NCBI GenBank assembly: GCA_002452265.1
Contig: DKEW01000015.1
Span: 354-64,353 of the forward strand
Length of the DNA: 64,000 nucleotides
Source of the DNA: Pelobacter sp. UBA6812
GTDB taxonomy: Bacteria > Desulfobacterota > Desulfuromonadia > Desulfuromonadales > Syntrophotaleaceae
Reading direction: 5' to 3'
Shown: positions 25,369 through 54,545 of the stretch, piece after piece
How positions within the stretch are numbered: the stretch's first letter is position 1
Layout of the letters: the number at the start of each line of letters is the position of its first letter
Position numbers and translations under genes: made by a program
Notes under the pieces: generated by a model
Seen by the model: the letters and a program-made list of their open reading frames with translations, nothing else
What the model was told of the DNA's origin: nothing
The model's database searches: none

Positions 25369-27627
25369 TCACAAACTTTCGAGCATGGATCGTACCTCGG
25401 AATTATTGGGATCCAGAAGTAAAGCCTTACGATACAATTCCTCGGCACGATATGTAATGCCCAGGCGCTGGTATAAGTTACCGGCAGTCAACAAAAGGGA
25501 AAGATCTTTGGGGCGAGCTTCCACACCAATACGAAAGACCTCAAGGGCCGCATCAAAATTTTCCTTGCTAACAAAATAGGCCGCAATCTGCTGGAATAGA
25601 TCCGAGGAAACCCATGGCTCGGAAACTGCCAGCTTTACCGAGTACATGTAAACAGTTTCAGCATCGCCATCCTTTGCCAGAGAAACAAGATAATCGCCAA
25701 ATTGACGATAAGCCTCTGCCCGTTGCGGCAAATATCTCAACCAACTATCGCTGGATATGTTCTGTTTTTGAAAATACCGTAACCAGAATCCGGTCTCCTC
25801 GGGTTCTAGTGACAGAAGCCTGGATAATGTCACCATTGCCTGCCGATCATCCCCCTTGGACAGAAGATAGAGAAGATGACTGCGCTGCAATGCGGAAGAA
25901 AGCGGCATATTTTTCAATCCTCCCTGCATCAGCTTCTGTCCAGCCTCGACATGACCACGCACCTCCAAAAGCGCGCCGATACGATATAGAGGCTTTCCGA
26001 CAAGAGGATTGAGCCGAAGGGCCCTTGAAAATAACGCCATCGCCCTTCCATCATCCTGTTGCGCTGCCCAATAATTTCCAGCCGCAAACCAATGGTCAGC
26101 TTCGAGAGGATCGAACAGCAATTGTTTTTCCAGTGTTTCCGGGGTATCTGACGACCCGTCCTGTGTTGACACAAAGGTCGCTACAAGTGGTTGTGACACC
26201 TTCAACCATGCTTTACCGCCAACATAAACGGTACCTGCCAGTCCCAACAAGCCGGCAAAAAAGATCATCCCCCACCGAACCTCCGGCGATAAATCGCCAA
26301 AGTCAGAATCTGGCTCTCCCGATGAACTGAAGCAGCCGATCGCTATAAAAAGTGCTGCAAGGAAATAACCTATCAACTTTGACCACGGAACGGATGCCTG
26401 AGACGCGGCGGAGCCTGATGCGAAACAAACGACCAATCCGGCAACTACGCCGGGTAAAAGGACCTGAGACATGCGGTTGCGCCTCCGGAACCATCCTGTA
26501 ACGCCAGTCAGAAGTAGGGAAAGCCAAAAACACAGAGTCAGGAAGATCCCGACAAGACCGCCTTCGGTGAGCACCGCAAGATCAAACCCGCCACTTTTTT
26601 TCTCTGCCGGAGAGGTCTTAAGCTTTGTGTAGCGCATTTCCAATCCCGCCAGGTTACCAGGCCCCGCACCGAGCAGAAAAAAATCTTTTACAAGAGACTG
26701 GCGATCAAGGGAGGTAAATGCTGGGATCGGAGAATTACTCGACTCACGATGTGTTGATTTTATGGTGCCAAGCCCAACCACAACAAAAACCAGCAGGGAT
26801 AGCACCACCGCAGTTATACAACCCGTGCGACTGCTGCGACGAAGCAGGAGCATGACTGTCATTATCAGAAGCCCGCAGGCCAGGGATACCTGGATTTGCA
26901 GAGGAGCAAATAGGGTCACGGCCACAATCATCAGTATCGCCGAGGCCAACAAATAGCCGTGAAGATGATTTGACGGATGACGGAATGCCTGCACCAGACG
27001 CTTGGTCCATGAACCATAATTTTGATGGGGCTTGGCATAAAGATGGCAAGCCAATACCAAGGGCACAAGAGCGGCCAATGATACCATCTCTCCCCTGAAC
27101 ACCGTGTGGAACAGATCGGCATTGAGACCTGCCGTAAGTTGAATAAAACCGAACCCGATTGTCGCAAAAGCGACCAATCCAACAGCTATCCCAAACCATT
27201 GTAAAAGTTTTCCCAGCTCGGCATGATAGGCACCGGTCTGGGCCGTCATAAAGAAAAGACCCGCCATGACCATAAACTGCAGTAGCCAGAGAAATGCCGG
27301 TTTCGCTGTCAAGGCGAGTGGCATCCATGTATCGGGGCGCAATGCCCAGACCGTTTCGCTGTACAATTGGTAGCCGCCAGGGGACAGAGATGACAAAATT
27401 GCAGGCGGAAGGGGAAGAAACTGAATCAACAGCAAAGCGAACCACCCGACGAGTGCTGGAAAACCAGGGGGGCGCCACAGACCTTCGCCGGCAAAATGCA
27501 GCATCCCCACCAGAGCGATCGAAACGGGTACGATCAGAACCGCGGCCCGCCAGGAGAAGGGTATAATCTCACCGAACAGGGTCAATAACCACACAGCAAC
27601 AAGTAGCCAACCCCATACTTTAGACAT
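25369..27627 (-). CDS. O-antigen ligase-like polytopic membrane protein with C-terminal TPR domain (catalytic motifs degenerate)
   Basis: Multiple TM helices, QFLPLP, GAGPG and EGGLVG Wzy_C-like motifs; TPRs (ALRLNP, ALLLDPNN). Start at ATG 27627 after GGGAGG. Confidence 0.75.
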   Translation of the reverse strand: MSKVWGWLLVAVWLLTLFGEIIPFSWRAAVLIVPVSIALVGMLHFAGEGLWRPPGFPALVGWFALLLIQFLPLPPAILSSLSPGGYQLYSETVWALRPDTWMPLALTAKPAFLWLLQFMVMAGLFFMTAQTGAYHAELGKLLQWFGIAVGLVAFATIGFGFIQLTAGLNADLFHTVFRGEMVSLAALVPLVLACHLYAKPHQNYGSWTKRLVQAFRHPSNHLHGYLLASAILMIVAVTLFAPLQIQVSLACGLLIMTVMLLLRRSSRTGCITAVVLSLLVFVVVGLGTIKSTHRESSNSPIPAFTSLDRQSLVKDFFLLGAGPGNLAGLEMRYTKLKTSPAEKKSGGFDLAVLTEGGLVGIFLTLCFWLSLLLTGVTGWFRRRNRMSQVLLPGVVAGLVVCFASGSAASQASVPWSKLIGYFLAALFIAIGCFSSSGEPDSDFGDLSPEVRWGMIFFAGLLGLAGTVYVGGKAWLKVSQPLVATFVSTQDGSSDTPETLEKQLLFDPLEADHWFAAGNYWAAQQDDGRAMALFSRALRLNPLVGKPLYRIGALLEVRGHVEAGQKLMQGGLKNMPLSSALQRSHLLYLLSKGDDRQAMVTLSRLLSLEPEETGFWLRYFQKQNISSDSWLRYLPQRAEAYRQFGDYLVSLAKDGDAETVYMYSVKLAVSEPWVSSDLFQQIAAYFVSKENFDAALEVFRIGVEARPKDLSLLLTAGNLYQRLGITYRAEELYRKALLLDPNNSEVRSMLESL

Positions 27628-28324
27628 CCAGCGACCTCCCTGAAATAACTGCAGCAGGATTATATTGCACAAGCTTAAGGGCCGCACTTTCTCCAATAAG
27701 CTGTGCTGCAACTCGCACACCTTCCGACAACTGCGGCAGCCGATGATGCGATGAGTGCCCATCGCTGGCGAGGATATGTACCCAGCCACTGGAAACCAAA
27801 TGACAGGCACAGGCCTGCACATCCACACCAAAAATGCCAGTAAGACTTCCTGCTGTAACCTGTACCAAAGCACCTGATTGCACAAGATGCTCAAGGGATT
27901 CAGGGTGTTTGAGAATACTTGGATTGCGCTCCGGATGGGTGATAATGGGACGCAAACCTGCTAACTGCCATTCAAAAAGCGTTTCCTCGGCATTGGCAGG
28001 CAAATGGCTATGGGGAAACTCAAGTAACACATAATTGGTTCGATTGACGGTATACAAAGACACTACCTCAATCGGCAATAAAGAGGAGACATCACCGCCC
28101 GGAAGTATATCGACAGATACGCCCATTTTTTGCAGATAGGCGGTAAGCATGCTGATCTTTTCTTCAATCAGCGCTGGTGTGGGAATTTCATTTTTGACAT
28201 GAGGCGTAGCGACAATGGTCCGGATTCCATCTGCTACAGCGATACGAGCCATGGCAAGCGACTCCTCCATGGATGATGAACCATCATCCATGGAGGGCAA
28301 TATATGGCAATGAATATCGATCAT
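27620..28324 (-). CDS. CpsB/CapC-type PHP tyrosine phosphatase
   Basis: IDIHCHILP..DDG, ATPH, THPERN, ASDGH. Confidence 0.93.
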   Translation of the reverse strand: MIDIHCHILPSMDDGSSSMEESLAMARIAVADGIRTIVATPHVKNEIPTPALIEEKISMLTAYLQKMGVSVDILPGGDVSSLLPIEVVSLYTVNRTNYVLLEFPHSHLPANAEETLFEWQLAGLRPIITHPERNPSILKHPESLEHLVQSGALVQVTAGSLTGIFGVDVQACACHLVSSGWVHILASDGHSSHHRLPQLSEGVRVAAQLIGESAALKLVQYNPAAVISGRSLDV

Positions 28325-28326
28325 AA

Positions 28327-30510
28327 TTATTTGCCTGATTCGGCAACAGGCCTCTTATTTTTATTATCTCCCTCGTAATGGTGGTAGTAACTATGATGAT
28401 AATAGGAGGATTTATCGATTTCCAAAGCATTAATAACCAAACCAAGTATGCGCGCTCCGGCATCCCGAAGTGTTCGAAGAGTCCGGTCCGCGATTTCGTA
28501 GGTCGTCTTGCCACCGGCCGCAACAAGAATCACCCCTTCGAACAACCGGCACAGAAGTCGCGTATCCGATACCGGCAACACCGGCGGGGAGTCACAGAGA
28601 ATAATGTCGAATTCATTACTCAATGAATCCAATAAACTTGGCAAACGGTTTGAGCTAAGCAATTCCGAAGGGTTGGGCGGAATCGGTCCGGCAGGTATGA
28701 CGTACAGATTATTTACGCTTGTTTTCTGCACGATGTGACCATCCACTGCACCGGCCAAATAGGTACTTAATCCCCGGCTGTTGGATAGCTTCAATATTTG
28801 ATGAATTCGCGGTTTTCGCAAATCACCATCCACCAGTAGCACTTTCTTGTCGGACTGAACAAGGGTCTGGGCCAGATTAATGATCGTGGTGGTCTTGCCC
28901 TCCCCCATCCCCGCGCTCGTCAGCAGAATGCGTCGAGGTGCCTGATCGGCAAAGGATAGGAAAACTGCAGTTCTCAGTCCGCGATAACTTTCAGCGAAGG
29001 CCGATTGCGGCTCACTCAGAACCGTCTCCTCAACGGGGTGTTTTAGATGTCGACGCATTGAGATCACCCCGAGAATCGGGATCCCGAGAATAGCTTCTGC
29101 TTCTTCGGGGTCTTTAACGGTGTTGTCAAGATAATTCATGAAAAACGCAAGAGCGATTCCACCCGCAAGACCGATGATCAATCCAAGCAGCAAATTGACT
29201 TTTTTCGAGGGGGTTGCTGGGAATTTGGGCAGCATCGCCTTTTCCACAATCCAGAGAACAACAGGGCTGGAATCTTCGGTAATACTCTGTTCTTTAAGTT
29301 TGAGCATCAAGGCATCGTAGAGTTCACGGTTTGTATCAACTATCCTTTTGAGGGCACCATACTGGATAAATTTTTCGTTCAGCCCCATTGCCTCGGATTT
29401 GGTTCCCGTGAGCTTGCTGCGCAAAGTGTTTTCATTAGATCGCGCGAGTTCGTAATCGGTTTGGATAGAGTCGATAATGCGATCGATTTCCTGGCGTCGT
29501 TTACGCTCGAGAACCTGCAGATCTCCTCTTGCCTTAACCATCAGCGGATGTTTGGATCCGAATTTGTTGGACAGTTCCATGATGCTTTTTTCAGTTTCAA
29601 CGATCTGGGACCGAATGGCCTGAAGAGCAAGGTCGGATGCAATCGCCGACATGGATTCAGCCTTCCGATAATCGCCTTTTGCCCGATTGATTTTGCTTAC
29701 CAGGATCTCCAGTTCCTTACGACGGGTTTCAGCGCGAAGCAACTGGATATTGATCTCGGACAGTTTTTCCGGAACAACTGTAATGCGATCTTCCAGCGTA
29801 ACGATATCGTTAGCTTTCATGTAATCTTGAAGAGCTTGCTCCGAAGCCTTGAGTTTCTGAGCTTCATCCTGAGCCTTGCGCCCCATCCACTCAAGGTTGG
29901 TACGCGTAGCATTCATTTTCATCTGAAGAGTTTCATCAATATAGGCTTTGGCGGTTGTATTGGCCACCATCGCCGCAAGTTCGGGATTTGGAGATAAATA
30001 GTTAATCGTTATCAGACGGGTCCCTGGAACGGGTTTAACGAACAGGGATTCGGAAATTTTATCGATAATTGCATCCTTTCGGCTCTGATCCTTCTGCGCC
30101 TTTCCAAATAGAATGCGCTTGGCATCAGCAACCGCTTCGCTCGCTAATTGCCAGGTGAATTGCAAGATGGTGCGTTTCTTGTTGGCCGCTTCCAAATACC
30201 TGTCGTAATTCTCCTCAAGGTTAAGAATTTCAACCACCTTCTCAACAACGGTACGACTGCGGATCAGCTGCAATTGGGTTTTATAAAACTCAGGGTCGTA
30301 GGAAGATCCCCGGACCCGCCCCGTCAGATCTCCGTTATCTACTTTTTCAATCAATACTTTGGCCACGCCTTCGTAAAGAGGGGTGGCTGCGTAGGTGAAT
30401 AAAACCACCAGCCCAAAAACAATCAGGAAAAAGGCCAAAACAATACGTCGGTATTTACGCACCGTTCCAATCATGTCCAATAGATGAAGATCGGTCTTTT
30501 TAAAGGGCAT
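28327..30510 (-). CDS. wzc: Polysaccharide co-polymerase/tyrosine autokinase (Wzc)
   Basis: Two TM segments, coiled-coil periplasmic region, Walker A GEGKTT, DGDLRKP, DSPP, C-terminal Tyr cluster YYHHSYYHHY. Confidence 0.93.
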   Translation of the reverse strand: MPFKKTDLHLLDMIGTVRKYRRIVLAFFLIVFGLVVLFTYAATPLYEGVAKVLIEKVDNGDLTGRVRGSSYDPEFYKTQLQLIRSRTVVEKVVEILNLEENYDRYLEAANKKRTILQFTWQLASEAVADAKRILFGKAQKDQSRKDAIIDKISESLFVKPVPGTRLITINYLSPNPELAAMVANTTAKAYIDETLQMKMNATRTNLEWMGRKAQDEAQKLKASEQALQDYMKANDIVTLEDRITVVPEKLSEINIQLLRAETRRKELEILVSKINRAKGDYRKAESMSAIASDLALQAIRSQIVETEKSIMELSNKFGSKHPLMVKARGDLQVLERKRRQEIDRIIDSIQTDYELARSNENTLRSKLTGTKSEAMGLNEKFIQYGALKRIVDTNRELYDALMLKLKEQSITEDSSPVVLWIVEKAMLPKFPATPSKKVNLLLGLIIGLAGGIALAFFMNYLDNTVKDPEEAEAILGIPILGVISMRRHLKHPVEETVLSEPQSAFAESYRGLRTAVFLSFADQAPRRILLTSAGMGEGKTTTIINLAQTLVQSDKKVLLVDGDLRKPRIHQILKLSNSRGLSTYLAGAVDGHIVQKTSVNNLYVIPAGPIPPNPSELLSSNRLPSLLDSLSNEFDIILCDSPPVLPVSDTRLLCRLFEGVILVAAGGKTTYEIADRTLRTLRDAGARILGLVINALEIDKSSYYHHSYYHHYEGDNKNKRPVAESGK

Positions 30511-30583
30511 ACAATGACTCTGCCTCCCCTATGAATTAAGAATAAATGACCTTTGAATAACCTATACAACCAAACGAACAAGA

Positions 30584-31390
30584 TCAGAAAAAACTTTCAG
30601 GCACCACGATGACATCTTCTGGCAAGACAACGGTATGCATCGGTACTTTTTCAATAACTTTTTCTTCACCATCAACATGCCGAATCAGACGAACCCGTTT
30701 CTGGGAGGCAAGCTCGGTAAATCCCCCTGCTATCGTAATCGCTTTGATTACCGAGGTACCCGCTTCAAGTTTATACATATCCGGTCTTTTAACCTGACCC
30801 GTCACATAAAATACACCTGCCCGCGGGACGAAGACACTGTCACCGTCCATGATGGAAACATTCGGGGAGGTTTCCTGTTTTTCCAAAAGGCTTTTCAGAT
30901 TGACGGTTATGATATTGTCCTGGCCGGGGTTGTCAGGATTTTTACGTTTGATAGTAATTTCACTGCCTGCATCAGGCGTCAAGCCACCGGCCTTGGAGAT
31001 GAGTTCCACCAGGTTGGTACTGCCGCTCAATTCATATAGGCCGGGCAGTTTCACTTCACCCATGATATTCGCTCTCTTACTGCGAAATTCCTCGACAAAA
31101 ACCGAAACCTGCGGATCCCGAATATAACCGGAGGCAAGTTTTTGGGCAATTTTGGAAGAAACTTGTGAAACGGATAATCCTTCGATTTGCAGCTCGCCGA
31201 TAAGGGGAAACAGAATGGTGCCGTTACCACTGACCCGTGTAGTGGTTTCCAAGTCAGGGTTATCGTAAACCATGACTTTGATGACATCCCCTTCCCCAAT
31301 CCGGTAATCCTGCTGTTCAAGACACAGAGATGTCCGACCGGTTGCAAAAAGCAGGATTAACAGAGCGCACGCAAAAGTAAAATTTTTCAT
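30584..31390 (-). CDS. Short periplasmic OPX/Wza-family export protein (PES + 2 SLBB, no C-terminal helix)
   Basis: YRIGEGD...G.ILFPLIG PES motif, two GEV/GQV..P..Y..AGG SLBB repeats, ends PESFF. Confidence 0.9.
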   Translation of the reverse strand: MKNFTFACALLILLFATGRTSLCLEQQDYRIGEGDVIKVMVYDNPDLETTTRVSGNGTILFPLIGELQIEGLSVSQVSSKIAQKLASGYIRDPQVSVFVEEFRSKRANIMGEVKLPGLYELSGSTNLVELISKAGGLTPDAGSEITIKRKNPDNPGQDNIITVNLKSLLEKQETSPNVSIMDGDSVFVPRAGVFYVTGQVKRPDMYKLEAGTSVIKAITIAGGFTELASQKRVRLIRHVDGEEKVIEKVPMHTVVLPEDVIVVPESFF

Positions 31391-31430
31391 GGTCGAATAC
31401 CTCCACTATAGTCATGCTTGTAACTGATCC

Positions 31431-32786
31431 TTAAAGTGCAAAGATCAGACTAAGGTAAACGTTATTGCGATCATAATCGAAATCGATAGAATTGGAATCC
31501 CGCTTGATAAAGGCGTATCCACCAGACAGAGACATCCAGTTGGTAAATGAATATTTCATATCTACCCCGGCACTGTAGTAATCATCCCGTCGATCACCGG
31601 AGGTCCCTTCCCCATGATAACTATTGCGTTTGTAAAAGACGTTGGCAGAGGCCAACAGTTTTGGCAAAATTCTCTGATAGTACCGTAATTGGACTTTCTG
31701 GGACAAAATATAGGAAGTCCCGGCAATATCCGTTTCGTTGGAATTGCGCGAAGCTCTCAACTCAGCATAAGATTTCGGAGTAAAACGGTGGCGAAGCTGA
31801 ATTTCCGCTATCAGGTTATCAACCTCCTGGCTTCCAGCCGCATCGAAATCCTTCAGTCCATAACCGACCTTGGCGAGCAGTCGGGACTTGATGGTTGCAA
31901 TCCACTCGACCCCGGCATATACCCGGTGTTCCTGACTGTCGGAAATGATGTCCTTGTCGTAATCGACATCAACGAAATCATATTCCAGCAGAGCCGAGGT
32001 CTTGGGCAAAAACCGGTAGAAGAACCGTCCGGCAAAACTATTATCCTCACGCTCGCGAAAAGCATTGCGTGATGCGTCATAACTCAGGGAATAAAACCCG
32101 TATTCTCCTTCGATGCGGGTTTTCGGAGTAAACTCGTAACTGACCGTTGAGCTGACAAGGTTGGACTTGAATTTATCCAGAGTCCGACTGGTTCCAGTGC
32201 CATATGCATCATGATCGAGTTCATAGATATCCAGAACATCTACAGACAGGCCACCGCGAAAGTTATATTGGAAAAATCCTTCAGCACGCTGATTGACCTG
32301 ATCTTCGGAATCAAATTTGTCATGCAACATTATATTAGCCTGATATTTTGCGTAACCTTGTATCCGAGTGGTGGCTTTTTCACGAAAACGGCTGAGCTCC
32401 AGACCTCCGGGCGCAGTATTCAAAGTATTCATGCTGATAAGAGGATATCTGCTTGCGGGCAGTACTGCCCAGATACCGGGGGTGATGAGCGTAATAAAAT
32501 CACCTTCACGATTGGATTCACGACTGAAGAGGTTATCCGTATAAAAACCGCTAACGGACAAAAATGGATGGATATAACCTGTCTTGCCGCCCAGGATATC
32601 TCCAAGACGCACGGCTGTTGAGGATTGTTCAAAGGGACTTTCGCTATATATTGTAGGGGGCAGAATGCCCGGTGCGGTGGGAACCTCCTCCGTATCCGTA
32701 GCCTTGTCGGCAGCAACTTCAACGCTCCAAGCCGGTTGTCCCAGCAGTAAAATCAAAAAAACCCCCCACAAAATTTTACCGAACAT
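31431..32786 (-). CDS. Outer-membrane beta-barrel protein (EPS export associated)
   Basis: Signal peptide, alternating amphipathic Tyr/Phe-rich strands, C-terminal beta-signal NVYLSLIFAL; adjacent to the OPX gene. Confidence 0.8.
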   Translation of the reverse strand: MFGKILWGVFLILLLGQPAWSVEVAADKATDTEEVPTAPGILPPTIYSESPFEQSSTAVRLGDILGGKTGYIHPFLSVSGFYTDNLFSRESNREGDFITLITPGIWAVLPASRYPLISMNTLNTAPGGLELSRFREKATTRIQGYAKYQANIMLHDKFDSEDQVNQRAEGFFQYNFRGGLSVDVLDIYELDHDAYGTGTSRTLDKFKSNLVSSTVSYEFTPKTRIEGEYGFYSLSYDASRNAFREREDNSFAGRFFYRFLPKTSALLEYDFVDVDYDKDIISDSQEHRVYAGVEWIATIKSRLLAKVGYGLKDFDAAGSQEVDNLIAEIQLRHRFTPKSYAELRASRNSNETDIAGTSYILSQKVQLRYYQRILPKLLASANVFYKRNSYHGEGTSGDRRDDYYSAGVDMKYSFTNWMSLSGGYAFIKRDSNSIDFDYDRNNVYLSLIFAL

Positions 32787-37092: not shown

Positions 37093-37106
37093 GCAGTCTC
37101 CCCCTT

Positions 37107-43980: not shown

Positions 43981-43981
43981 C

Positions 43982-45194: not shown

Positions 45195-46805
45195 TCACTT
45201 GAAAGTCATCTGTCTAGCTCGGGTTATTATGTTCTTTCTTTGTATCATTGAAAAACCGGCCCAAAATGAAATACAGAAAACAATCATGAAGCTTATGACC
45301 GCAAACAATATTAGTTCACGCCAGTTATCAACTTTTATAAACGGAGCCAAGTAATAGGTACTGCCATATAAGAAAACCATCACGCCGGACATCCTTAAAA
45401 AGTCCAAAACACTTTTTCGGGTCGGGTGAGTGCCTTTTTGTAAAGTCTTCCTGACTAATATCGGATACAGGACACTAAGTATCAACCTTCCACCGATCAG
45501 GCCGAGCAAAACCCCAGCAATGGGGGATTTCAAATAAAATCCAAGCCAAATAGCCAGAAGCAGCGAAACAAACGTAGACAAAGCCCCCCACAATACCTTG
45601 GCCCTGATCTCAAGAGTCACATCTACGATCGAAGCCTGGTAGCGAATAAAAATCAGTTGGGTCATCAGGAGTACAATAAGGAGATTTTCCCAGAAACCGA
45701 TGAACTGGTCAGCACCCACCCAAAGGGAGATAAATGGTCGGTTCCATAGAAGAATCATGGCCCCGATAATGACGGCAAGCAACCAGGAAGAAGCCATGAT
45801 TTCCGAATGAACCTCATCAGCCTTTTTATGATCGCCCCGTCCAACAATATCTCCGAGGCCTGGCATGCCCGCCGATACCAGAAGCGAAGAAAGTGCTATG
45901 GAAGACTGTGCGACATAAAAGGTCAAGGTGTAAGCAGCCACCAGGGAAGCGTTGGAAACAACCCCAAGAATAATGATGTCGCTGTACAGAAGAAGCCTTT
46001 GGATCAATGTCCAAGCCAACATCCAGACACTGAAAGTGAAGAATTTGCTAACCTCCCCTGGTTTGGGCCGACGAACGGTCAGCCATGGCAAAGATCTGCG
46101 CGCCATATAAAAAATGGCGCCCCCCTCCAGGACCGCACCCACCAGAAAAGCAACTGCCAGACCGAACAATCCCCAGCCGCTCCAGGCAGCACCGGCCAAC
46201 AATACCCCACTGAACAAAGCGCCGGCAGCGCTTATCCAGGTGATTTTGTATCGCAGGTTCATCCCGACCATCACAGACTCAGGGATAGATTTCAGTGGAA
46301 AAAGCAGAAGATTTACCACAAGGACGATACAGGTCAGGCGTGTGACGAAATAATATTCACGGGGCAAATCATTGATGAACGTCGGTGAAAACCAGGAGAG
46401 CAAACCTCCTACCAGCAACATCAGAGGTAGAAACCTCAACCAGACGACAACTGCACAGCCTATTTCTCGCCTTTTCTGCTCAACATCCGTAACCGATCGG
46501 CGATTGGCAATGGTCCATTTAAGTGCCTGATTGGCCTGCCCATCTGCGGCAGAGACGTAAGTCAGCAAGCGCAGGCAGATCTTCCAGGTTCCAAACAAAA
46601 CAGCTCCGAGCGAGGTCAGCAAGAGGGGATTCAACAACAGCCCAACCAAAATTGCAGCACCGTAGGACAGCAAGGACGATGCTGCGTTTAAAAAGGTCGT
46701 TTGGGTAAGATTCGGGGAAGAGATCAGGGCCCTGATCTTAAAGCTCTTTGATGCAGGCGACTGACACTTTGGGGGCACTCTGCAATTCTCCAGTATGACA
46801 AGCAT
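45195..46805 (-). CDS. wzx: Wzx flippase (MATE-like)
   Basis: Many TM segments, SDIIILG motif, EPS context; exact start uncertain. Confidence 0.82.
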   Translation of the reverse strand: MLVILENCRVPPKCQSPASKSFKIRALISSPNLTQTTFLNAASSLLSYGAAILVGLLLNPLLLTSLGAVLFGTWKICLRLLTYVSAADGQANQALKWTIANRRSVTDVEQKRREIGCAVVVWLRFLPLMLLVGGLLSWFSPTFINDLPREYYFVTRLTCIVLVVNLLLFPLKSIPESVMVGMNLRYKITWISAAGALFSGVLLAGAAWSGWGLFGLAVAFLVGAVLEGGAIFYMARRSLPWLTVRRPKPGEVSKFFTFSVWMLAWTLIQRLLLYSDIIILGVVSNASLVAAYTLTFYVAQSSIALSSLLVSAGMPGLGDIVGRGDHKKADEVHSEIMASSWLLAVIIGAMILLWNRPFISLWVGADQFIGFWENLLIVLLMTQLIFIRYQASIVDVTLEIRAKVLWGALSTFVSLLLAIWLGFYLKSPIAGVLLGLIGGRLILSVLYPILVRKTLQKGTHPTRKSVLDFLRMSGVMVFLYGSTYYLAPFIKVDNWRELILFAVISFMIVFCISFWAGFSMIQRKNIITRARQMTFK

Positions 46806-47032
46806 TATAGTAACTTAAGAAGGCACAACAAGGTAGATTGCCCAATTTTACTACTACTTAATAACAGGAAAGGGAGGGAACGCAAGGCAGCAACTTGGTT
46901 CGAATTCACAAAAAAATATCTACTTGGGATAGGACGTCGTTGTTGTAGAGAGTTTATCAGACAACCCGGATAAAAAAATGACCTACTGGTTTTCCACATG
47001 AAATCCATGGAGAGGTAACAGACTTTTTTCAT
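46805..47032 (-). other. 75-aa ORF overlapping both neighbours (possible small protein or GT remnant)
   Basis: ATGA overlap with the upstream GT stop; TAATG overlap with the wzx start. Confidence 0.35.
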
Positions 47033-48237
47033 ACGGTATTCGTTACCCTATCTGGCGCAAATTCATACAACAAAGAATGATACTCATCGTTCAATGCACT
47101 CCACATTCTTTCCTGCTTGAAAACATCCAGAACCCTTGCCCTCCCTGCCCTTCCGTGCATGGCACGCAAAGACGGATCAAGCAGATAATTTCTCACCGCA
47201 TTTTTAATGGCAATGGCGTCAAAAGGAGGTATCAAAACTCCTGTTTGACCGTCGACCACGGCGTCAACGACACCAGGAATATCAGTGGCAACCACAGGTA
47301 TACCCATTGCGGAGGCTTCAATGGCAACCACGCCGAAACCTTCACGGTAGGTTGGAAATACAAAAATATCTGTAACAGCATAAATCGGAGCTACGTCCGA
47401 AAGCCCTCCAGTCATGTGGATTCGGGAGTCACTTTTCAAACCATCCAGAAGCGAAACAGGTAAAGGGTCATTCGTCTCAACTGGACCTGCCAGCAACAAT
47501 TCAAGAGACGGGAATTCCTCTCTTAAAGATTTCCAGGCATCATACAACTCGGCTATACCCTTATCTTTTACGATCCTTCCGACAAAACCCAGAACTAAAC
47601 TGTTAGGGGCAATGCCATATTTTTTTCGGATTTTGTCCCTTTCATCCAATGGATACTTTTCCGGATTAAACTTATTCTGCGCGTCGATGCCGTTGATGGT
47701 TCCATTTAGTAATGTCTTGATTTTACCTGAAGGGCAGATTTTGGATTGAACAACAAGTTCCCTGATAGAATTGCTAACACACAGAACCCGGTTTGCCAGT
47801 TTGCAGGAAATTTTTTCAGTCAATATTAAAATCGGTCGTTGCAGACCTTCTGCGGTCAAATACCGCAATCCATGAATATGGTAGATTCTAATCGGAATCC
47901 TGGCCATCCAGGCCGCTATGATGCCCAGAAGACCGCCTTTCGGAGTGTGTGCATGAACAATGTCAGGATTGAGCCGGCGTAACAACCGCCATAGATTCCA
48001 CAGGGTGCGAAGATCCTTTAATGGCGTAATCTTTCTGCTAATTTCCAAGCCGACAACCTGAATATCTTCCCGTTCGGCAAAAGAGTCCAGATGAGCTCCA
48101 GGAGAAGAAATAGCGACAACATTAAACCCCTGTTTTTTCATAAACCCCATCTGCCCATGAAAAAAGCAATGAAGAGATTGAGGGACAGTCGTAATATGAA
48201 TCAATTTAATTGGTTTAAGGGATCGGGATTCTGACAT
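47029..48237 (-). CDS. GT4 glycosyltransferase (CapM-like)
   Basis: HAHTPKGGL, FVGRIVKDKG, FPTYREGFG..AIEA; start at ATG 48237. Confidence 0.93.
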   Translation of the reverse strand: MSESRSLKPIKLIHITTVPQSLHCFFHGQMGFMKKQGFNVVAISSPGAHLDSFAEREDIQVVGLEISRKITPLKDLRTLWNLWRLLRRLNPDIVHAHTPKGGLLGIIAAWMARIPIRIYHIHGLRYLTAEGLQRPILILTEKISCKLANRVLCVSNSIRELVVQSKICPSGKIKTLLNGTINGIDAQNKFNPEKYPLDERDKIRKKYGIAPNSLVLGFVGRIVKDKGIAELYDAWKSLREEFPSLELLLAGPVETNDPLPVSLLDGLKSDSRIHMTGGLSDVAPIYAVTDIFVFPTYREGFGVVAIEASAMGIPVVATDIPGVVDAVVDGQTGVLIPPFDAIAIKNAVRNYLLDPSLRAMHGRAGRARVLDVFKQERMWSALNDEYHSLLYEFAPDRVTNTV

Positions 48238-48426
48238 AATTTTATAATCTCCGTAATAAAAAACCCCTCTGGCAATTTTCAACCGACATGAACAAAATTA
48301 CTGGCATTGTCTGATGGATTTCTAAACCAAACCGATATCCCCTTATTCATCCAGAATAGTATTCAAGTCATATTTTACTATCCAATTACCCACATATTTA
48401 AATGTGAATTATCATAAGACCTGATT

Positions 48427-49641
48427 TCAAAACTTCCCTTTATTTTTATCCCAATAATCCTTGGTTTTCTTTTTAATCTCTTCATAAAAAGCATTTCTTC
48501 GTCTCTGAAGAATATCATTCCGATAATCTTTTGCTTTCTCCAGGTTTCGTTCAGACATACTCCGCAGCCGCTCAGGACTGGAGAGAACCTCTATGATTTT
48601 CTGAGCAAGGTGATGAATATCACCGGGCTGAACCAGATCTTCAGAAGAGAGAAGTTCCGGAATCCCGCTGGCAGAGGAGCCGATGCAGGGCAGTCCCCTT
48701 GCCATGGCTTCGATCATGGCACGCGGCAACCCCTCGCCTTTTGACGGAAGAACAAAAAGGTCTGCATTATCAAGTTGTTGTCGCACCGCATCACCGGACG
48801 GGAGTTGACCGGCAAAACGCACATACTCGCCCAACTCGAGAGAATCTACCAAATGTTCAAGATCCTTCCTGAATTTTCCGTCACCGACAAGAGTCAATCG
48901 TGCATCCAATCCTTCTTGAACACAAATAGCGAACGCTTTTAAAAGGACATCCTGGGCCTTATAAAGTTGAGCCATGGTCCCGACAGAGATAATTTCAAAG
49001 CCGCTCGTTCGAAATCGTTCCAAAGGTGGTGAAGCAACAAAATCAGAAGCATCCAGCTGAATACTGGAATAGTGGGTATTAAAAATCCCCTGGGCTGGAG
49101 GATAACGTCTTTGAAGGGAAAATTCCGTCACATAGGCCACCCCACTCGCCTTGAGACACTTAAGGCGAAGACCATTGGCAAACCAAATGCGAAAAATGGG
49201 CCGCAAGGGATGCTTGATGGCTCCGGGAGCAAAAACATCATAGGGGTCACCAACAACCTCCATGCCGAACGGATGACGCCTTTTGGTTAATACTTTAATC
49301 AAATTAGATGCAATATTTCCCGGGCTTCTTGTAATAAATGCAGAATGACCATGATTTTCTAAAAAAACTGAACGAATGGTTTTATTAATTTGAAATTTTT
49401 TGAATAGATATTGAGTAGGCCCTAGATAGTAAGGAATTGGTTTGAAAAAAACATTTGAACCGGTTACTTTAGCATTCCCGGTTGTTAAATACTCTTGCAG
49501 TCGACCAACAACTGTTACTGAATCAAAAACTTCCAAATATCTTTTAAAGAATGAATATCCGGATGCAAATTCGTTATCGGTATAGATAGTACCATCGCGG
49601 CCCTTTTGAAATCGTGTCTCAGTTGTTATTATAACATTCAT
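48427..49641 (-). CDS. GT4 glycosyltransferase
   Basis: YKAQD, LPSKGEGLPRAMIEAMARG. Confidence 0.92.
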   Translation of the reverse strand: MNVIITTETRFQKGRDGTIYTDNEFASGYSFFKRYLEVFDSVTVVGRLQEYLTTGNAKVTGSNVFFKPIPYYLGPTQYLFKKFQINKTIRSVFLENHGHSAFITRSPGNIASNLIKVLTKRRHPFGMEVVGDPYDVFAPGAIKHPLRPIFRIWFANGLRLKCLKASGVAYVTEFSLQRRYPPAQGIFNTHYSSIQLDASDFVASPPLERFRTSGFEIISVGTMAQLYKAQDVLLKAFAICVQEGLDARLTLVGDGKFRKDLEHLVDSLELGEYVRFAGQLPSGDAVRQQLDNADLFVLPSKGEGLPRAMIEAMARGLPCIGSSASGIPELLSSEDLVQPGDIHHLAQKIIEVLSSPERLRSMSERNLEKAKDYRNDILQRRRNAFYEEIKKKTKDYWDKNKGKF

Positions 49642-49891: not shown

Positions 49892-51172
49892 TTAAAACAT
49901 GATGGCTGTAGGGAAAAAGAACCTGTGACCTAAGGACTGGTTGTTCATGTCGGCAAGGTCTACACTCTCAAAGTCGGAGGTGTGAACCGTGCCCCCGAAG
50001 CCTTGCCCTTTGCTTTCAACTACCGTGGTAGCTGGCCCGATCATATCTCCAGTCCCCCCAAATGAAATACAGTGAGTGACCTTGTGCGGGGCATTCGGCA
50101 ACTCCCAGTTCTGACCGGAAGCGTAGGCGATACAACCGGTCAGCACGCTGCCGTTGGTTGTGCCGTTCTCGGAGTAACCACGAAACCGATTCCCTAGAGC
50201 GATGCAACACACCAGGGTATGTTTGCCGCCACGCAGGCCTTGATAGGGCGCCGGGTCCGCCTTGCCAAGCTTGAAGCCGTTGCCGTCGCCGCCCTTTCCT
50301 TTACCGTTGTTCGCGGCGACGCAGTCCTCAAAATAATGACTGCTGGCCGCCCAGTTGTCGTATCCATCGTCAGAGTTGCCAATGGCGACACAACGGTAAA
50401 ACTCATTTTTTTTACCCGAGGTTATGCTGAACCCGTCGGCGCTGTCCCCTGCGGTTTGGGTGTCGACATTATTTTTCGCTGTACAGTTGTAAAATTTACA
50501 GCGATAGAGTTCCTTCGAGGAAAAACCGGCGCCGTTATTGTCGTGCATGTAAATGTTATGCCATTCGCAGTCTGTGACATTCTCGACATAAAAACCGTTA
50601 CTGACCCGGTTCTTGCCGCTGTTGCGAACTTCGAAGTTGCGGAAAATAACCCACGACGCATTGAAAATGCGGAACAGGTTGCCGCCGCTGGTGTTGGTAC
50701 CGTCGATGATCGCCCACTCACCGGGATAAGAACGGACTTCCAGTGGATAGAGCGCGGAGGCGGAAACGTTCCCGTTGATATCAATGATGGAATCATACAC
50801 CCCGCCACGCAGATAAATGGTATCCCCGGCATTGGCGTGGGTCATGGCGTATTGAATATGTTGCCAAGGGAAGAGGTAAGAACCTGTGCCGTGGTCCGAT
50901 CCTGAAGGGGACACATATCGGGAGACCCCTCCGTAAGGCGCAGCGTAGGGATCATCACCAGCTCCTATCGACTTATCATAGCCGTAAAAGATAGCCTTTT
51001 CCGGTGAAACCCGCTCTGAAGCGCACTGGCCGAAGGCTAAGTATGTTGTGGAGGTGACAACAAAAGTGTCCCCTCTGACAAATCTTTCTGCAAAGGGATT
51101 TAAACTCGGCAAAACGCACCCTAGCGCCAATGATAAGGAAATAACAAAGCCCTGTATCAGCATCCTGTTCAT
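49892..51172 (-). CDS. PL9-like right-handed beta-helix polysaccharide lyase, short form (possible lipoprotein)
   Basis: YVSPSGSD..PW..IQ, ADGF, NSDDGYD, GDGNGFKLG. Likely start ATG 51172 gives MNRMLIQGFVISLSLALG-C19. Confidence 0.8.
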   Translation of the reverse strand: MNRMLIQGFVISLSLALGCVLPSLNPFAERFVRGDTFVVTSTTYLAFGQCASERVSPEKAIFYGYDKSIGAGDDPYAAPYGGVSRYVSPSGSDHGTGSYLFPWQHIQYAMTHANAGDTIYLRGGVYDSIIDINGNVSASALYPLEVRSYPGEWAIIDGTNTSGGNLFRIFNASWVIFRNFEVRNSGKNRVSNGFYVENVTDCEWHNIYMHDNNGAGFSSKELYRCKFYNCTAKNNVDTQTAGDSADGFSITSGKKNEFYRCVAIGNSDDGYDNWAASSHYFEDCVAANNGKGKGGDGNGFKLGKADPAPYQGLRGGKHTLVCCIALGNRFRGYSENGTTNGSVLTGCIAYASGQNWELPNAPHKVTHCISFGGTGDMIGPATTVVESKGQGFGGTVHTSDFESVDLADMNNQSLGHRFFFPTAIMF

Positions 51173-51460: not shown

Positions 51461-51501
51461 AAAAAAAGGTGAGGCTCCCGTTTACCATGGAAGCCTCACC
51501 T
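51461..51501 (-). terminator. Strong intrinsic terminator after the large lyase gene
   Basis: AGGTGAGGCTTCC-ATGGTAAAC-GGGAGCCTCACCT-TTTTTT. Confidence 0.9.
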
Positions 51502-51554: not shown

Positions 51555-54143
51555 TTAGAACAGAGGAACTTTAGCATAGAAGAACCGGTGCCCTGCGGAC
51601 TGGTTGTTCATGTCGGCAAGATCGACACTCTCGAAGTCTGAGGTGTAAACCGTGCCCCCGAAGCCCTGCCCTTTGCTCGCAACCACGGTGGTGGAGGATC
51701 CGATCTTGTCCCCGTTACCGCCAAAGGAAATGCAATTGGTCACTTTGTACGGGGCGCTCGGCAGCTCCCAGTTTTGCCCGGAACTGTAAGCGATACAACC
51801 GGTCAGCACGCTTCCGTTGGTTGTGGCATTCTCGGAGTAACCGCGGAACCGATTGCCAAGAGCGATACAACGCACCAGGGTGTGATTGCCGCCACGCAGG
51901 CCCGCATAAGGTGCCGGATCCGGCTTGCCAAGCTTGAAGCCGTTGCCATCGCCACCTGCCCCGCTGCCACTGTTTGCGGCAATGCAGTCTTCGTAATAAT
52001 GTCCGCTGGCCGCCCAGTTGTCGTACGCGTCATCGGAGTTACCGATGGCAACGCAACGGTAGAACTCATTCTTTTCACCCGAGGTGACGCTGAACCCGTC
52101 GGCACTGTCTCCTGCTGACTGGATGTCGACATTGTTGCTGGCCGTGCAGTTGTAGAATTTGGAGCGATAGAGTTCCTCTGCAGAGAAACCGGCACCGTTA
52201 TTGTCGTGCATGTAGATGTTATGCCATTGGCAATCTGTAACGTTCTCGACATAAAAACCGTTGCTGAGCCTGGTTTTATCGCTGTTGCGAACTTCGAAGT
52301 TGCGGAAAATCACCCACGACTCATTGAAGAACCGGAACAGGTTGCCGCCGGTGGTATTGGTGCCATCGATAATTGCCCACTCGCCAGGATAGGAACGCAC
52401 TTCCAGAGGCTTCGTTGCGGTGGCGGAAACGTTTCCATTGATGGTAATAGGGGAATTATAAACCCCACCACGCAGATAAATCGTATCTCCGGCATTGGCG
52501 TGGGTCATGGCATACTGGATACTTTTCCAAGGAGAAGTAACAGAGCCGCTATTATTGTCCGATCCTGAGGGGGAGACATAACGAGATACCCCACCGTAAG
52601 GAGCGGCGTGAGGATCATCACCAGCCCCTGCCGTCTTATTGTACCCATAGAAGACCGTTGAGGTGCTACTGGAGGTTCCGGAAGTGTTTGAAGAGCTGGA
52701 GGAAGTATCATCATTTTTAATGGTAACAACAGTAGAGGTAATGGATCCAAGGGTCGCAACGGTGGGGCTGCCAAGATTCACAGTGAAAGTTTCATCAGGT
52801 TCCACGATCGAATCATTCACGATTGCAATGCTCTTGACTTTCTGGGTTTCTCCGTCCGCGAAGCTCATGGTAGTCCAGGAGAAGCTTCCGTAATCCGCAT
52901 CGTAGGTGGCCGTATTGCCATTGGTGCGAATCTGGACCGTAGCCGCCCCGGAAGAACCACCGACGCGCTTGACCACCACGTCGACTTTACCGCCAGCTTC
53001 GGATACCGAATAGCTGGAGGCGCCAAACTCGAAACTGCCGGGCTCAGTGGAGGCCACAGGAATCTTCACACTCAGACTTACAGGCGCGGACTGTGAGGTG
53101 TTGCCAGCGGCGTCATAAGCGACCGCGGTAATGGTGCAGGTGCCGTTGGCGCTACTGCTGATCGGCATACTGGCGGAGTAGGTATTGGTAGTGTCAGTGC
53201 CGATAAGCTTGCCATCGACATAAAACTCCACCTTGACGACGCCCACATTGTCGCTGGCACTGGCCACGATATTTACCGTTTGGTCGCTGGTCACCGTGGT
53301 GCCGCTTAACGGACTGGTAATCTTGGCAACAGGTGCCGTGGTATCCGTCACATCGTTATCGACAATAGTCACGGTCGATTCAGTAACCGTGCCCAAAGAA
53401 GTACCGCCAGTGGGGTTACCCAGATTAACAGTGAAGGTTTCCTTGTTTTCCGTCACATTGTCGTCGGTAATGCCAATGCTGATGACTTTTTGGGTCTGAC
53501 CGTCAGCAAAGTTCACCACAGTCCAGGAAAAGCTGTCGTAGTCCGTAGCATAATCGGCAGTGATGCCATTGGTGCGCACCTCGACAGTGGCAGCGCCAGC
53601 GGATCCACCGACCCGCTGAAGCACAACATCAACCTTGCCGGCACTTTCGTCCACGGAATACGTCGAAGCTGCGAACTGGAAGCTTCCTGGTTGTGAGTCA
53701 TTATCTACAATCGTCACTGCCGAAGTGGTCACACTGCCCAGCGTCGTGCCATCGGTCGGCTTGCGCAAAAGGACGTTAAATACTTCGCTGGATTCCTTGG
53801 CCGTGTCGTCGGTGATGCCGATACTCAGAACCTTCTGGGCCTGCCCGTCGGCAAAACTGACCGTGGTCCAGCTCATGCTGTTATAATCAGTCTTCCAATC
53901 GGCAGTATCGCCCAAGGTACGTACCTGAACTGTCGCTGCACCGGAAGTGGAACCAGTCCGTTTCAAAAGGACATCAACTTTACCGGCCCCTTCGTTGACG
54001 GAATAGTTAGCGGAACCAAGCTCAAAGCTGCCGGACGCTGCGGCAACGTTCCCCGGAAAAACCATTTGCATGGTAAGTAGCAACACACAAATCAGGCCCC
54101 CTATGGAATGTTTCAGATGCGTCATAATAAATGTTTGTCTCAT
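51555..54143 (-). CDS. Secreted multidomain protein: Calx-beta x2, Ig-like (Big), Calx-beta, Ser/Thr linker, PL9-like beta-helix lyase
   Basis: Signal peptide ending VAAA; three GSF.....YSV.E...DY......FADG...K......D...E..E.F.V.L repeats; DTTAP...SDNVGV..VEFYVDG...DAAGN Ig domain; ADGF/NSDD/GNGFKLG. Start at ATG 54143 after GAGGGAG. Confidence 0.88.
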   Translation of the reverse strand: MRQTFIMTHLKHSIGGLICVLLLTMQMVFPGNVAAASGSFELGSANYSVNEGAGKVDVLLKRTGSTSGAATVQVRTLGDTADWKTDYNSMSWTTVSFADGQAQKVLSIGITDDTAKESSEVFNVLLRKPTDGTTLGSVTTSAVTIVDNDSQPGSFQFAASTYSVDESAGKVDVVLQRVGGSAGAATVEVRTNGITADYATDYDSFSWTVVNFADGQTQKVISIGITDDNVTENKETFTVNLGNPTGGTSLGTVTESTVTIVDNDVTDTTAPVAKITSPLSGTTVTSDQTVNIVASASDNVGVVKVEFYVDGKLIGTDTTNTYSASMPISSSANGTCTITAVAYDAAGNTSQSAPVSLSVKIPVASTEPGSFEFGASSYSVSEAGGKVDVVVKRVGGSSGAATVQIRTNGNTATYDADYGSFSWTTMSFADGETQKVKSIAIVNDSIVEPDETFTVNLGSPTVATLGSITSTVVTIKNDDTSSSSSNTSGTSSSTSTVFYGYNKTAGAGDDPHAAPYGGVSRYVSPSGSDNNSGSVTSPWKSIQYAMTHANAGDTIYLRGGVYNSPITINGNVSATATKPLEVRSYPGEWAIIDGTNTTGGNLFRFFNESWVIFRNFEVRNSDKTRLSNGFYVENVTDCQWHNIYMHDNNGAGFSAEELYRSKFYNCTASNNVDIQSAGDSADGFSVTSGEKNEFYRCVAIGNSDDAYDNWAASGHYYEDCIAANSGSGAGGDGNGFKLGKPDPAPYAGLRGGNHTLVRCIALGNRFRGYSENATTNGSVLTGCIAYSSGQNWELPSAPYKVTNCISFGGNGDKIGSSTTVVASKGQGFGGTVYTSDFESVDLADMNNQSAGHRFFYAKVPLF

Positions 54144-54220: not shown

Positions 54221-54260
54221 AAAAAAAAGCGCTGCATTTGGAGATCCCAAAGCAAAGCGC
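54221..54260 (-). terminator. Intrinsic terminator forming the riboswitch expression platform
   Basis: GCGCT(TT)GCTTTGG-GATCT-CCAAA(T)GCAGCGC followed by T8, between the aptamer and the start codon. Confidence 0.8.
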
Positions 54261-54306
54261 CGCACATGTACCTACTGACCTCGAGGTTTTTCCAGGTTTT
54301 GAGGAA

Positions 54307-54398
54307 TTTCGGCAACCCGGCTATCCACCTTAATTTTTGACTTCAGTGGACCCGTAGCTTTGCGTGGCCAGATCTCTCTGACTTTGCCCTGAACGAAA
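54307..54398 (-). ncRNA. c-di-GMP-I (GEMM-I) riboswitch aptamer
   Basis: TTTCG...AGG-GCAAA-GTCAGA[GAGA]TCTGGC-CACGCAAAGCTACGGGTCC...GGATAGCCGGGTTGCCGAAA. P1, the GNRA loop, the GCAAA/ACGCAAAGC core and the GCCG 3' end all match. G at the Vc2 position-20 equivalent indicates c-di-GMP rather than cGAMP. Confidence 0.93.
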
Positions 54399-54528
54399 GT
54401 TTTACCCCTAGACCATGACCATCGGCATACCCTCCTACGCAGTAGTGGTTACATTACCCATAGTAACGATGCGTCATTTGCATCGGCTATCACAATGGGT
54501 GAGCCAGTCGTTCTGCGGAACTTGTAAG

Positions 54529-54545
54529 AGCAAGCCACATGCCAA
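54529..54545 (-). promoter_or_regulatory. sigma54 (-24/-12) promoter
   Basis: TTGGCATGTGGCTTGCT: GG-N10-GC matching TGGCAY-N5-TTGCW; IHF-like site AATCGGTCACTTA at 54559-54571; predicted +1 near 54518. Confidence 0.8.

Follow-up and report, generated by a model that had tools for sequence, protein, structure and literature searches.

Self-made enzymes that degrade the biofilm matrix and bring about dispersal are known from a few model pathogens, and the step that leads from low cyclic diguanylate (c-di-GMP) to production of the enzyme is mostly unclear. In C. difficile, the class-I c-di-GMP riboswitch Cdi-1-12 upstream of zmpI is an OFF switch (PMC6200980). Cd1 (flgB) is a c-di-GMP-I transcriptional OFF switch that works by ligand-dependent intrinsic termination (PMC9262584). 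In V. cholerae, RbmB, a beta-helix lyase with a lysine base and Ca2+ assistance, cuts the organism's own exopolysaccharide (EPS) and promotes biofilm dispersal (PMC11637428, PMC12993940). We analyzed a 64,000-nucleotide stretch of Pelobacter sp. UBA6812 (assembly GCA_002452265.1, contig DKEW01000015.1, positions 354 to 64,353 of the forward strand; hereafter the window), in which a complete Wzx/Wzy-type EPS locus of about 29 kb (25369-54545, minus strand), identified by Pfam and NCBIfam scans, has at its head two genes for predicted lyases of polysaccharide lyase family 9 (PL9), the first of them behind a c-di-GMP-I riboswitch. The sequence-only reading with which this work began had described a co-oriented Wzx/Wzy locus of this size headed by two PL9-like lyases, and we recovered all of its elements on the minus strand where it had placed them.

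The described systems resemble this locus in different respects. As with ZmpI, a class-I OFF switch, predicted in our case, stands before a secreted enzyme that would remove the cell's own adhesive surface material, such that release is favored at low c-di-GMP; but ZmpI is a metalloprotease that acts on protein adhesins, it has no paralog pair, sigma54 promoter or EPS locus, and the counterpart ON switches on adhesin genes in C. difficile have no equivalent in the window. Cd1 couples the same aptamer class to an intrinsic terminator, but it serves flagellar genes and has a 3'-strand antiterminator, whereas the predicted antiterminator of the window is the 5' core of the aptamer, engaged in a long-range helix. 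VexL (6FI2), AlgL and PslG, which are periplasmic, each degrade the product of the biosynthetic locus that encodes them, but they are single enzymes co-expressed with synthesis, whereas the window has two copies, one of which is insulated and riboswitch-gated. Pel9A of Dickeya (1RU4) and BT4170 (5OLQ) share fold and family with the window enzymes, which keep the aspartates of the Ca2+ site and the lysine, but identity is about 22%, and these relatives serve nutrition or virulence by breaking down plant pectin or rhamnogalacturonan, in contrast to a subfamily that sits in EPS loci of anaerobic Desulfuromonadales with one copy fused to Calx-beta and Big_7 domains. RbmB is a functional analog only: it is likewise a beta-helix lyase of self-made EPS encoded beside EPS gene clusters, but it belongs to another family, is present in single copy, lacks an Ig/Calx stalk and has no reported c-di-GMP riboswitch (PMC11637428, PMC12993940). 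We found no sequence match between RbmB and the window lyases, and in a Foldseek search its fold ranked 38th (TM 0.22-0.26), as a generic beta-helix.

The aptamer itself is an ordinary member of RF01051, and both an OFF-switched release enzyme and a dispersal lyase in an EPS locus are already known. What is new, as far as the compared sequences reveal it, is the leader and twin layout across congeners and one other family, with exchange between PL9 and PL1-type domains in both copies. The literature that we searched contained no riboswitch on a polysaccharide lyase, no pair of a regulated and an unregulated lyase paralog, and no concerted exchange of catalytic family; the sequence-only reading had known of no description of the arrangement, and we likewise found no account of it.

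We think that this Wzx/Wzy EPS locus probably carries at its head a two-enzyme 'release' module. According to this proposal, the long gene would be transcribed from a sigma54-type promoter through the c-di-GMP-I riboswitch; with c-di-GMP bound, the aptamer would let an intrinsic terminator form before the long gene (OFF), and at low c-di-GMP the 5' arm of the terminator would pair with the aptamer core, permitting read-through. Production of the long enzyme would thus need an enhancer-binding-protein signal and low c-di-GMP together. Once exported, the long enzyme would cut the organism's own matrix polysaccharide, leading to dispersal or remodelling, and the separately expressed short paralog would resemble AlgL or VexL in working close to the envelope, where it would trim or clear the polymer being exported. 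If this is true, an RNA before a lyase gene reads c-di-GMP directly, in combination with sigma54 input; moreover, the second paralog, which has no riboswitch, is a built-in comparison, and the arrangement is simple enough for in vitro work. What makes the locus interesting is a design that is modular, conserved and directly testable; none of its parts is of a new type.

Two PL9 enzymes at the head of the locus

The long lyase gene (51555..54143, minus strand) encodes an 862-aa protein with a Sec signal, three Calx-beta repeats, a Big_7 stalk, a Ser/Thr linker and a PL9 catalytic beta-helix (at about 51558-52670). Its start at ATG 54143 and its 862-aa form agree with the database gene call P0122. 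About 290 nt further on lies the short paralog (49892..51172, minus strand; 426 aa from ATG 51172, although the open reading frame [ORF] as called starts at 51301), in which a lipobox-like signal (LALGC) is followed by a disordered linker and a PL9 beta-helix, with 82% identity to the catalytic domain of the long copy over 371 aa.

A local Pfam scan alone gave only a generic Beta_helix match for these lyases, and the assignment to PL9 came from searching a profile against the PDB. The profile, built from 14 subfamily members, matched Pel9A (1RU4) with an E-value of 7e-31 across residues 18-396 of 400, and also the PL9 rhamnogalacturonan lyase BT4170 (5OLQ; E 2e-25). NCBIfam PelN matched the lyases at 1e-13 to 1e-14, which is under its equivalog cut-off, and PF22842 is annotated (precomputed) on every one of the matches listed. 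The motifs ADGF, NSDDGFD and GNGFKLG align to 1RU4 chain positions 184, 208/209/212 and 248, such that D289, D311, D312, D315 and K344 (numbering of the 469-aa ORF) correspond to D209, D233, D234, D237 and K273 of 1RU4, which we take to be, in precursor numbering, the four Ca2+-site aspartates and the catalytic lysine of Pel9A. All five residues are shared by both window paralogs and do not vary among the 14 subfamily members. AlphaFold2 modelled most of residues 102-469 of the short paralog with a predicted local distance difference test (pLDDT) score above 90. The top Foldseek matches of this model were 1RU4 (1e-13, TM 0.71) and 5OLR (5e-13), with the next-best fold family about seven orders of magnitude weaker than the PL9 structures. 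Family, fold and catalytic residues all predict that both head enzymes are Ca2+-dependent, beta-eliminating PL9 lyases, which bears out the PL9-type assignment of the sequence-only reading; its pictures of a 'Ca2+-stiffened' long copy and a 'cell-bound' short copy remain inferences. Membership in a PEP-CTERM/exosortase system was also considered and rejected: matches to XrtA-associated families were all sub-threshold, and the lyases have no PEP-CTERM tail.

The leader of the long gene and the predicted direction of its switch

The c-di-GMP-I (GEMM-I) aptamer upstream of the long gene (54308..54398, minus strand) matched positions 1-87 of the RF01051 covariance model with 60.2 bits, where the gathering score is 35. 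Homologous aptamers stand at the same site in four genomes of the genus, here called G003 (59.8 bits) and G004, G005 and G006 (about 60-67 bits), and another lies before the corresponding gene of G029, a genome from another family of the order. As read from alignments, the ligand-contacting positions are G20/A47/C92, the canonical c-di-GMP type, in the window aptamer and in all five of these homologs; the G 5' of GCAAA, the first A of ACGCAAA and the first C of GCCGAA are retained. We mapped A47 from Rfam variant models and our own Vc2 numbering. The roles of G20, A47 and C92 have been described, as has A20 as the mark of cyclic GMP-AMP (cGAMP)-type aptamers (PMC6140456). Across the five genus leaders, four aptamer pairs have compensatory double changes, and 93% of structure cells are paired, compared to 28-47% in slid controls, with the weak statistics that five closely related sequences allow. 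The first hairpin has a tetraloop of the GNRA type, GAGA or, in G006, GUAA.

Natural variation within metagenomes follows the same structure. Independent oil-field samples, from runs of 2014 and 2021, contain identical pieces. In a strain that is about 1% diverged, a 13-nt deletion is confined to the apex of P2, which still folds as a compact hairpin; in an abundant relative, we found no changes in the aptamer core and a single, pair-preserving change in the terminator stem, compared to eleven changes in the 5' untranslated region beyond the U-tract. Thus, natural variants spare the aptamer core and the terminator, which at the sequence level is evidence that the RNA is under selection.

At the upstream end of the leader, a sigma54-type -24/-12 element, TGGCATGTGGCTTGCT (TGGCAT-N5-TTGCT; 54529..54544, minus strand), is the sole match to the consensus TGGCAYN5TTGCW in the 64-kb window, where 0.32 matches are expected by chance. 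Since the chance of one such match in 64 kb is about 25%, the argument for this element rests on its conservation: it varies little or not at all among the five genus leaders, and a similar element occurs in G029. The window genome also contains rpoN. Between promoter and aptamer, the 5' leader (54399..54528, minus strand) aligns across the five genus leaders, and a block within it, GGAGG(G)TATGCCGATGG, which joins a Shine-Dalgarno-like sequence to a short ATG-containing element, is largely kept. This block (GGAGG followed by ATGCCGATGG; window 54405-54440, minus strand; alignment columns about 183-203) is what the sequence-only reading called a 'mini-ORF'; its first ATG is missing from the G004 leader. 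The remainder of the upstream leader is much less conserved in the genus, and outside the core elements we found no alignment of promoter and leader with G029. Contigs from metagenome runs X1 and X3 join 54398 straight to 54525-54528, skipping a leader segment of about 127 nt; these contigs differ from the window upstream of 54550 and have flanks of only 23-25 nt, so they are possibly from relatives, one of which was about 60-fold commoner than the window organism in run X1.

Downstream of the aptamer, an intrinsic terminator (54221..54261, minus strand), made up of a hairpin at 54229-54261 and a U8 run at 54221-54228, precedes the ribosome binding site (RBS) and the ATG at 54143. A second intrinsic terminator (GGTGAGGCTTCC...GGGAGCCTCACC followed by T7; 51461..51500, minus strand), read by eye, closes the long-gene unit. 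A consensus terminator scanner missed both of these terminators, which were found by eye or by folding. With its sigma54-type promoter, riboswitch and own terminator all present, the long gene forms a separate unit, as had been proposed from the sequence. The companion claim, that the short gene abuts the biosynthetic genes, holds only in part: it is adjacent to them, but across a 250-bp gap that contains a hairpin (49850-49868, minus strand) and a sigma70-like promoter ahead of the biosynthetic genes (49794-49823, minus strand), both of which are consensus matches only.

We examined by folding how the aptamer and the leader terminator might be coupled. With the aptamer pairs enforced, the terminator with its U-run formed in 6/6 leaders tested. 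When the transcript was cut before the 3' arm of the terminator, the best fold paired CGCUUUGCUUUGG in the terminator 5' arm with CAGGGCAAAG in the 5' core of the aptamer, and this competing antiterminator fold beat the window aptamer fold by 13.5 kcal/mol. The same test on four congeners gave the same direction, with margins of 13.8, 13.8, 6.2 and 3.1 kcal/mol. In the gene-proximal aptamer of G029, the antiterminator strand is the 3' tail of the aptamer, a different pairing with the same logic. The outer terminator stem and the U-run are kept in four of the five genus leaders, and G003 has a shorter 3' arm. Because the apo fold pairs the terminator 5' arm with the aptamer core, ligand binding should favor termination, and we predict from these models that the leader is a c-di-GMP-dependent transcriptional OFF switch here and in the five related leaders. 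If so, the long enzyme would be made when c-di-GMP falls, in agreement with the sequence-only reading.

We considered that the riboswitch might not be a c-di-GMP OFF switch in vivo, and might instead turn expression on, exert its effect mainly at the level of translation or RNA stability, or sense a different cyclic dinucleotide of this lineage, such as cGAMP. Only energy models give the direction, and in G006 and G003 they give the antiterminator a small edge; A20 occurs in two other GEMM-I aptamers of the window genome, and C at position 20 in the distal aptamer of G029. But the window aptamer and its five site homologs are all G20/A47/C92, a terminator with a U-run directly follows in every leader, and the terminator 5' arm is complementary to ligand-contacting aptamer segments in both the window and G029, through different pairings. 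Furthermore, nearly all C. difficile class-I switches tested are OFF switches (PMC6200980). We therefore regard a switch of another kind as improbable.

In addition to the aptamer of the EPS locus, the window genome has four further GEMM-I aptamers, all of which are followed by an intrinsic terminator. Two of the four carry the cGAMP-type determinant A20; these lie at C10:63850-63928 (minus strand) and C10:99866-99941 (plus strand), before CheW-like and methyl-accepting chemotaxis protein-like chemoreceptor genes. The other two (G20) precede PAS and PAS-GGDEF signalling genes; the domain names of the genes behind these four aptamers were read by eye from translations. In G029, the two aptamers lie at L010 17440-17519 (distal) and 17210-17287 (proximal), both on the minus strand; the distal one, with its C at position 20, fits the c-di-GMP-I-GGC variant model of Rfam and is followed by only a weak hairpin.

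A conserved leader and stalk with an exchanged catalytic domain

To compare this arrangement among relatives, we searched related genomes for the PL9 protein. Neither the 6 searched genomes of the genus nor the 10 others of the family contained it. In G029, from the other family, we found a PL9 long and short tandem, with two serial GEMM-I aptamers and a sigma54-type element before the long copy and a syntenic EPS locus behind it (36-66% identity), in which the variable biosynthetic block is partly conserved and the export and regulation orthologs are 36-58% identical to those of the window.

The EPS backbone, including a FemAB-like gene, is present in 6/6 congeners. In the four that are well assembled, the FemAB-like gene is preceded, at a distance of 11-18 kb, by a GEMM-I aptamer on its own strand, and these regions have the same sigma54 element, leader, aptamer, terminator and RBS as the window. 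In three of them (G003, G005 and G006), the layout of leader, long gene and short gene heads the orthologous EPS locus, with a PL1-type (VexL-like) domain instead of PL9 in both copies. The long proteins of G005 and G006 have a signal peptide and a Calx-beta/Big_7 stalk orthologous to those of the window, with 65-72% amino acid identity (72% in the G005 stalk), and from the upstream region through the first Calx-beta repeats, window and G005 are 80.7% identical at the nucleotide level. Homology to G005 and G006 ends in a Ser/Thr/Gly linker after the stalk, which marks the swap junction. The next gene in G005 and G006 is a short paralog with the same PL1-type domain, 96% and 94% identical to that of the long copy, and G003 has a PL1-type pair of 665 aa (long) and 423 aa (short) with 47% identity. 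In PDB searches, the G003 short copy matched 9BUJ at 2.4e-30 and VexL (6FI2) at 3.4e-7, and the G005 short copy matched them at 5.2e-29 and 5e-4, respectively; we take both 9BUJ and VexL to be members of PL1. The alignments show a module whose design is old and has been conserved in this Desulfuromonadales lineage: leader and stalk are kept, the catalytic domain is exchangeable, and the two copies within one genome are always of the same catalytic type by sequence, either PL9 or PL1-type.

The fourth congener, G004, has only the leader and a long Big_7/fn3 protein, with no adjacent short copy. The C-terminal domain of this head gene (about 400 aa; L189 6163-7359, minus strand) had no Pfam or PDB sequence match, and its single-sequence AlphaFold2 model was mostly helical and, with a pLDDT of 36, unusable. 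Possibly, a third type of catalytic domain is mounted here on the same chassis. Some further differences were seen in G003, where the orthologs of the variable block are 32-68% identical to the window. Between its lyase pair and Wzx, on the plus strand of L185, lie genes for a 1389-aa secreted-repeat protein (3784-7953), which has a weak SdiA-regulated/beta-propeller-like match, and for a 710-aa P-loop protein (8189-10321); both are absent from the window locus. G003 also has a second, weak GEMM-I match (38.5 bits; C19:16264-16353, plus strand), 5.5 kb upstream of the locus-heading aptamer.

Only three long forms were found among 5.8 billion proteins, and a scan of metagenome contigs recovered only distant relatives, with identity of 37% or less. 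The sequence-only reading had suggested a gene-neighborhood search as a check: G029 has the twin layout together with aptamer and EPS genes, and none of about 160 loci with more distant PL9-like genes has a GEMM-I aptamer within 10 kb.

The history of the pair is less simple than one lyase gene that was duplicated, as the sequence-only reading had it. The window copies are 79% identical at the nucleotide level, with a synonymous divergence (dS) of about 1.0, a nonsynonymous divergence (dN) of 0.11 and a longest identical run of 31 nt; with dN/dS at about 0.11, both copies are under purifying selection. In trees, paralogs group by genome lineage rather than by long or short form, with the long copies on short branches and the short copies on long branches. 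Together, this lineage-wise clustering and the matched PL1-type pairs point to repeated re-duplication or conversion by which the copies stay alike, and do not fit a single ancestral duplication with later divergence; the window pair is old, and three congeners are PL1-type in both slots. For G005 and G006, the 96% and 94% identity makes conversion or re-duplication likely. In the window pair, a recent tandem duplication was ruled out by the dS of about 1 and the 31-nt longest run, and a search for recent gene conversion found no tract. A contig of run X1 joins the short paralog at 50975 to the long paralog at 52747, skipping 1771 nt, compared to a paralog offset of 1663 nt; a hybrid or single-copy variant may exist in a related strain, or the contig may be chimeric.

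We tentatively extend these observations to a modular 'release cassette', a picture that we hold as possible, if somewhat doubtful. The fixed chassis would consist of the sigma54/c-di-GMP-OFF leader, the signal peptide and the stalk, on which lyase domains of unrelated families, namely PL9, PL1-type and the unassigned one of G004, would be swapped at the Ser/Thr linker, and the second copy would be replaced or converted in concert. This would keep the dispersal and trimming enzymes matched to the organism's own matrix, while c-di-GMP read by RNA would time the release. Such a cassette would be the self-directed counterpart of the domain swapping of phage depolymerases, and a catalytic swap across a genus on a conserved chassis is a natural experiment on the specificity of EPS lyases and on how pairs are matched.

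The substrate of the lyases and the content of the locus

A lyase of this kind needs a uronic acid in its substrate, and since there is no uronic-acid gene in the locus, the EPS is unproven as that substrate. What speaks most strongly for the polymer of this locus as the substrate is that the linkage of module and locus persists through a family-level swap of the catalytic domain. Both PL1 and PL9 act on alpha-1,4-linked galacturonate-type bonds, and VexL cuts poly-N-acetylgalactosaminuronic acid (poly-GalNAcA); by analogy, a GalNAcA- or galacturonic acid (GalA)-like residue in the EPS is a reasonable guess. We also asked whether lyase type tracks EPS chemotype; the evidence was mixed, with no simple match to similarity of Wzy or of the glycosyltransferases (GTs). 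Instead of tracking different chemotypes, the swap may have replaced one enzyme by a non-orthologous one for the same bond.

Several observations weigh against a release module that acts on this polymer. The window locus has no NDP-sugar 6-dehydrogenase, and no uronic-acid enzyme was found in either of the PL9-type loci examined; in the window genome and in G029, Ugd/TuaD-like and TviB-like genes lie on other contigs. The window Wzy is 59% identical to that of PL1-type G003, and that of PL9-type G029 gave no match at 1e-10. Apart from the Sec or lipobox signals, we recognized no secretion tag on either enzyme; lipobox-like signals stand on the short PL9 copies, but none is clear on the short copies of PL1 type. 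Domain and Rfam scans found no PilZ, GGDEF/EAL, enhancer-binding protein or second aptamer in the locus; there is no gene for an enhancer-binding protein nearby, nor was an upstream activating site identified. Furthermore, the ON/OFF call comes from thermodynamic folding, with a long-range helix as the window antiterminator and an advantage of only 3.1 kcal/mol in G006. Nothing in the locus ties EPS synthesis to c-di-GMP, and the 'c-di-GMP-gated build' of the sequence-only reading finds no support in the sequence; its 'release' half is supported by the lyases, the predicted OFF leader and the conserved link to the EPS locus.

Two other functions have to be weighed against release. In the first, both enzymes would be accessories of EPS assembly (AlgL/VexL/PslG-like) that trim polymer, clear it where it is mis-localized and set chain length; the riboswitch would tune the amount, and the long form would be attached to the surface through its Ig/Calx stalk. 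Such a role fits with the position of the module, which in all genomes examined stands at the head of the locus and points the same way, with the resemblance of the PL1-type relatives to VexL, a capsule depolymerase, with the lipobox-like signals on the short PL9 copies, and with purifying selection on both copies. However, a helper is expected to be co-expressed with synthesis, whereas a promoter of its own and two terminators set the long copy apart, and the prediction is that it is silent at high c-di-GMP, the state that usually favors matrix production; in addition, G004 has the long gene with no short paralog after it. We consider it unlikely that both copies are assembly accessories.

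In the second, the lyases would act on other polymers, such as the matrix of competitors, another polysaccharide of the organism itself, or environmental pectin-like or uronic food, and their position would be historical. Classically, PL9 and PL1 comprise lyases of pectate or rhamnogalacturonan, neither PL9-type genome has a gene for uronic-acid biosynthesis in its locus, and lyase type does not follow Wzy or GT similarity. Nevertheless, in two families and at least five genomes, module and locus have stayed together even though the catalytic domain was exchanged, c-di-GMP control suits a lifestyle function better than nutrition, and a lone lyase with no adjacent transporter or uronate catabolism makes a poor feeding system. 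A target outside the locus thus appears distinctly unlikely to us, and we retain release, acting on the locus's own EPS, as the probable function.

The rest of the locus, all on the minus strand and read from Pfam and NCBIfam matches, falls into three blocks. The variable biosynthetic block (42505..49641) encodes three GT family 4 (GT4) proteins (48427-49641, 47029-48282 and 43982-45109), a Wzx-like flippase (45195-46805) with a weak Polysacc_synt/MATE match (30 bits), and a Wzy polymerase (42505-44058; O-ag_pol_Wzy, 77 bits). The sugar-precursor and priming block (32921..42300) begins with the first of two small Bac_transf priming transferases (41695-42300) and also contains ATP-grasp, PHP hydrolase, second Bac_transf and DegT aminotransferase genes, a FemAB/GNAT-like gene (38220-39323), a 312-aa ORF with no family assignment (37107-38045) and a PglF-like 4,6-dehydratase (32921-34870). 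The export and regulation block (25369..32786) encodes an EpsL-like outer membrane barrel, a Wza-like outer membrane polysaccharide exporter (OPX; Poly_export and SLBB), a Wzc-like polysaccharide co-polymerase and bacterial tyrosine kinase (PCP/BY-kinase; Wzz, GNVR and P-loop kinase), a CpsB-type phosphatase and a TPR protein. The hallmark set of a Wzx/Wzy system is all present: priming transferase, flippase, polymerase, PCP/BY-kinase and OPX exporter. Since housekeeping genes lie at both ends, PFK and PFOR at one and apgM, XerD and GlnD at the other, the boundaries of the locus at 25369 and 54545 hold.

The amino-sugar branch has the PglF-like dehydratase and the DegT aminotransferase with no PglD-type acetyltransferase; in place of the latter are the ATP-grasp, PHP hydrolase, FemAB/GNAT-like and 312-aa ORF genes, in addition to the two separate priming transferases. 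G029 has a single priming transferase and no match to the ATP-grasp and PHP genes. The window assembly is apparently a metagenome-assembled genome (3.0 Mb, 90 contigs, 84% complete), and one of its housekeeping proteins assigns the organism to the Desulfuromonadales. Window DNA recurs in metagenomes from oil, hydrocarbon and bioreactor sources (four studies); among the public runs listed for this DNA, none is an RNA run. Biofilms in oil and hydrocarbon systems, the habitat of these organisms, are relevant to souring and corrosion.

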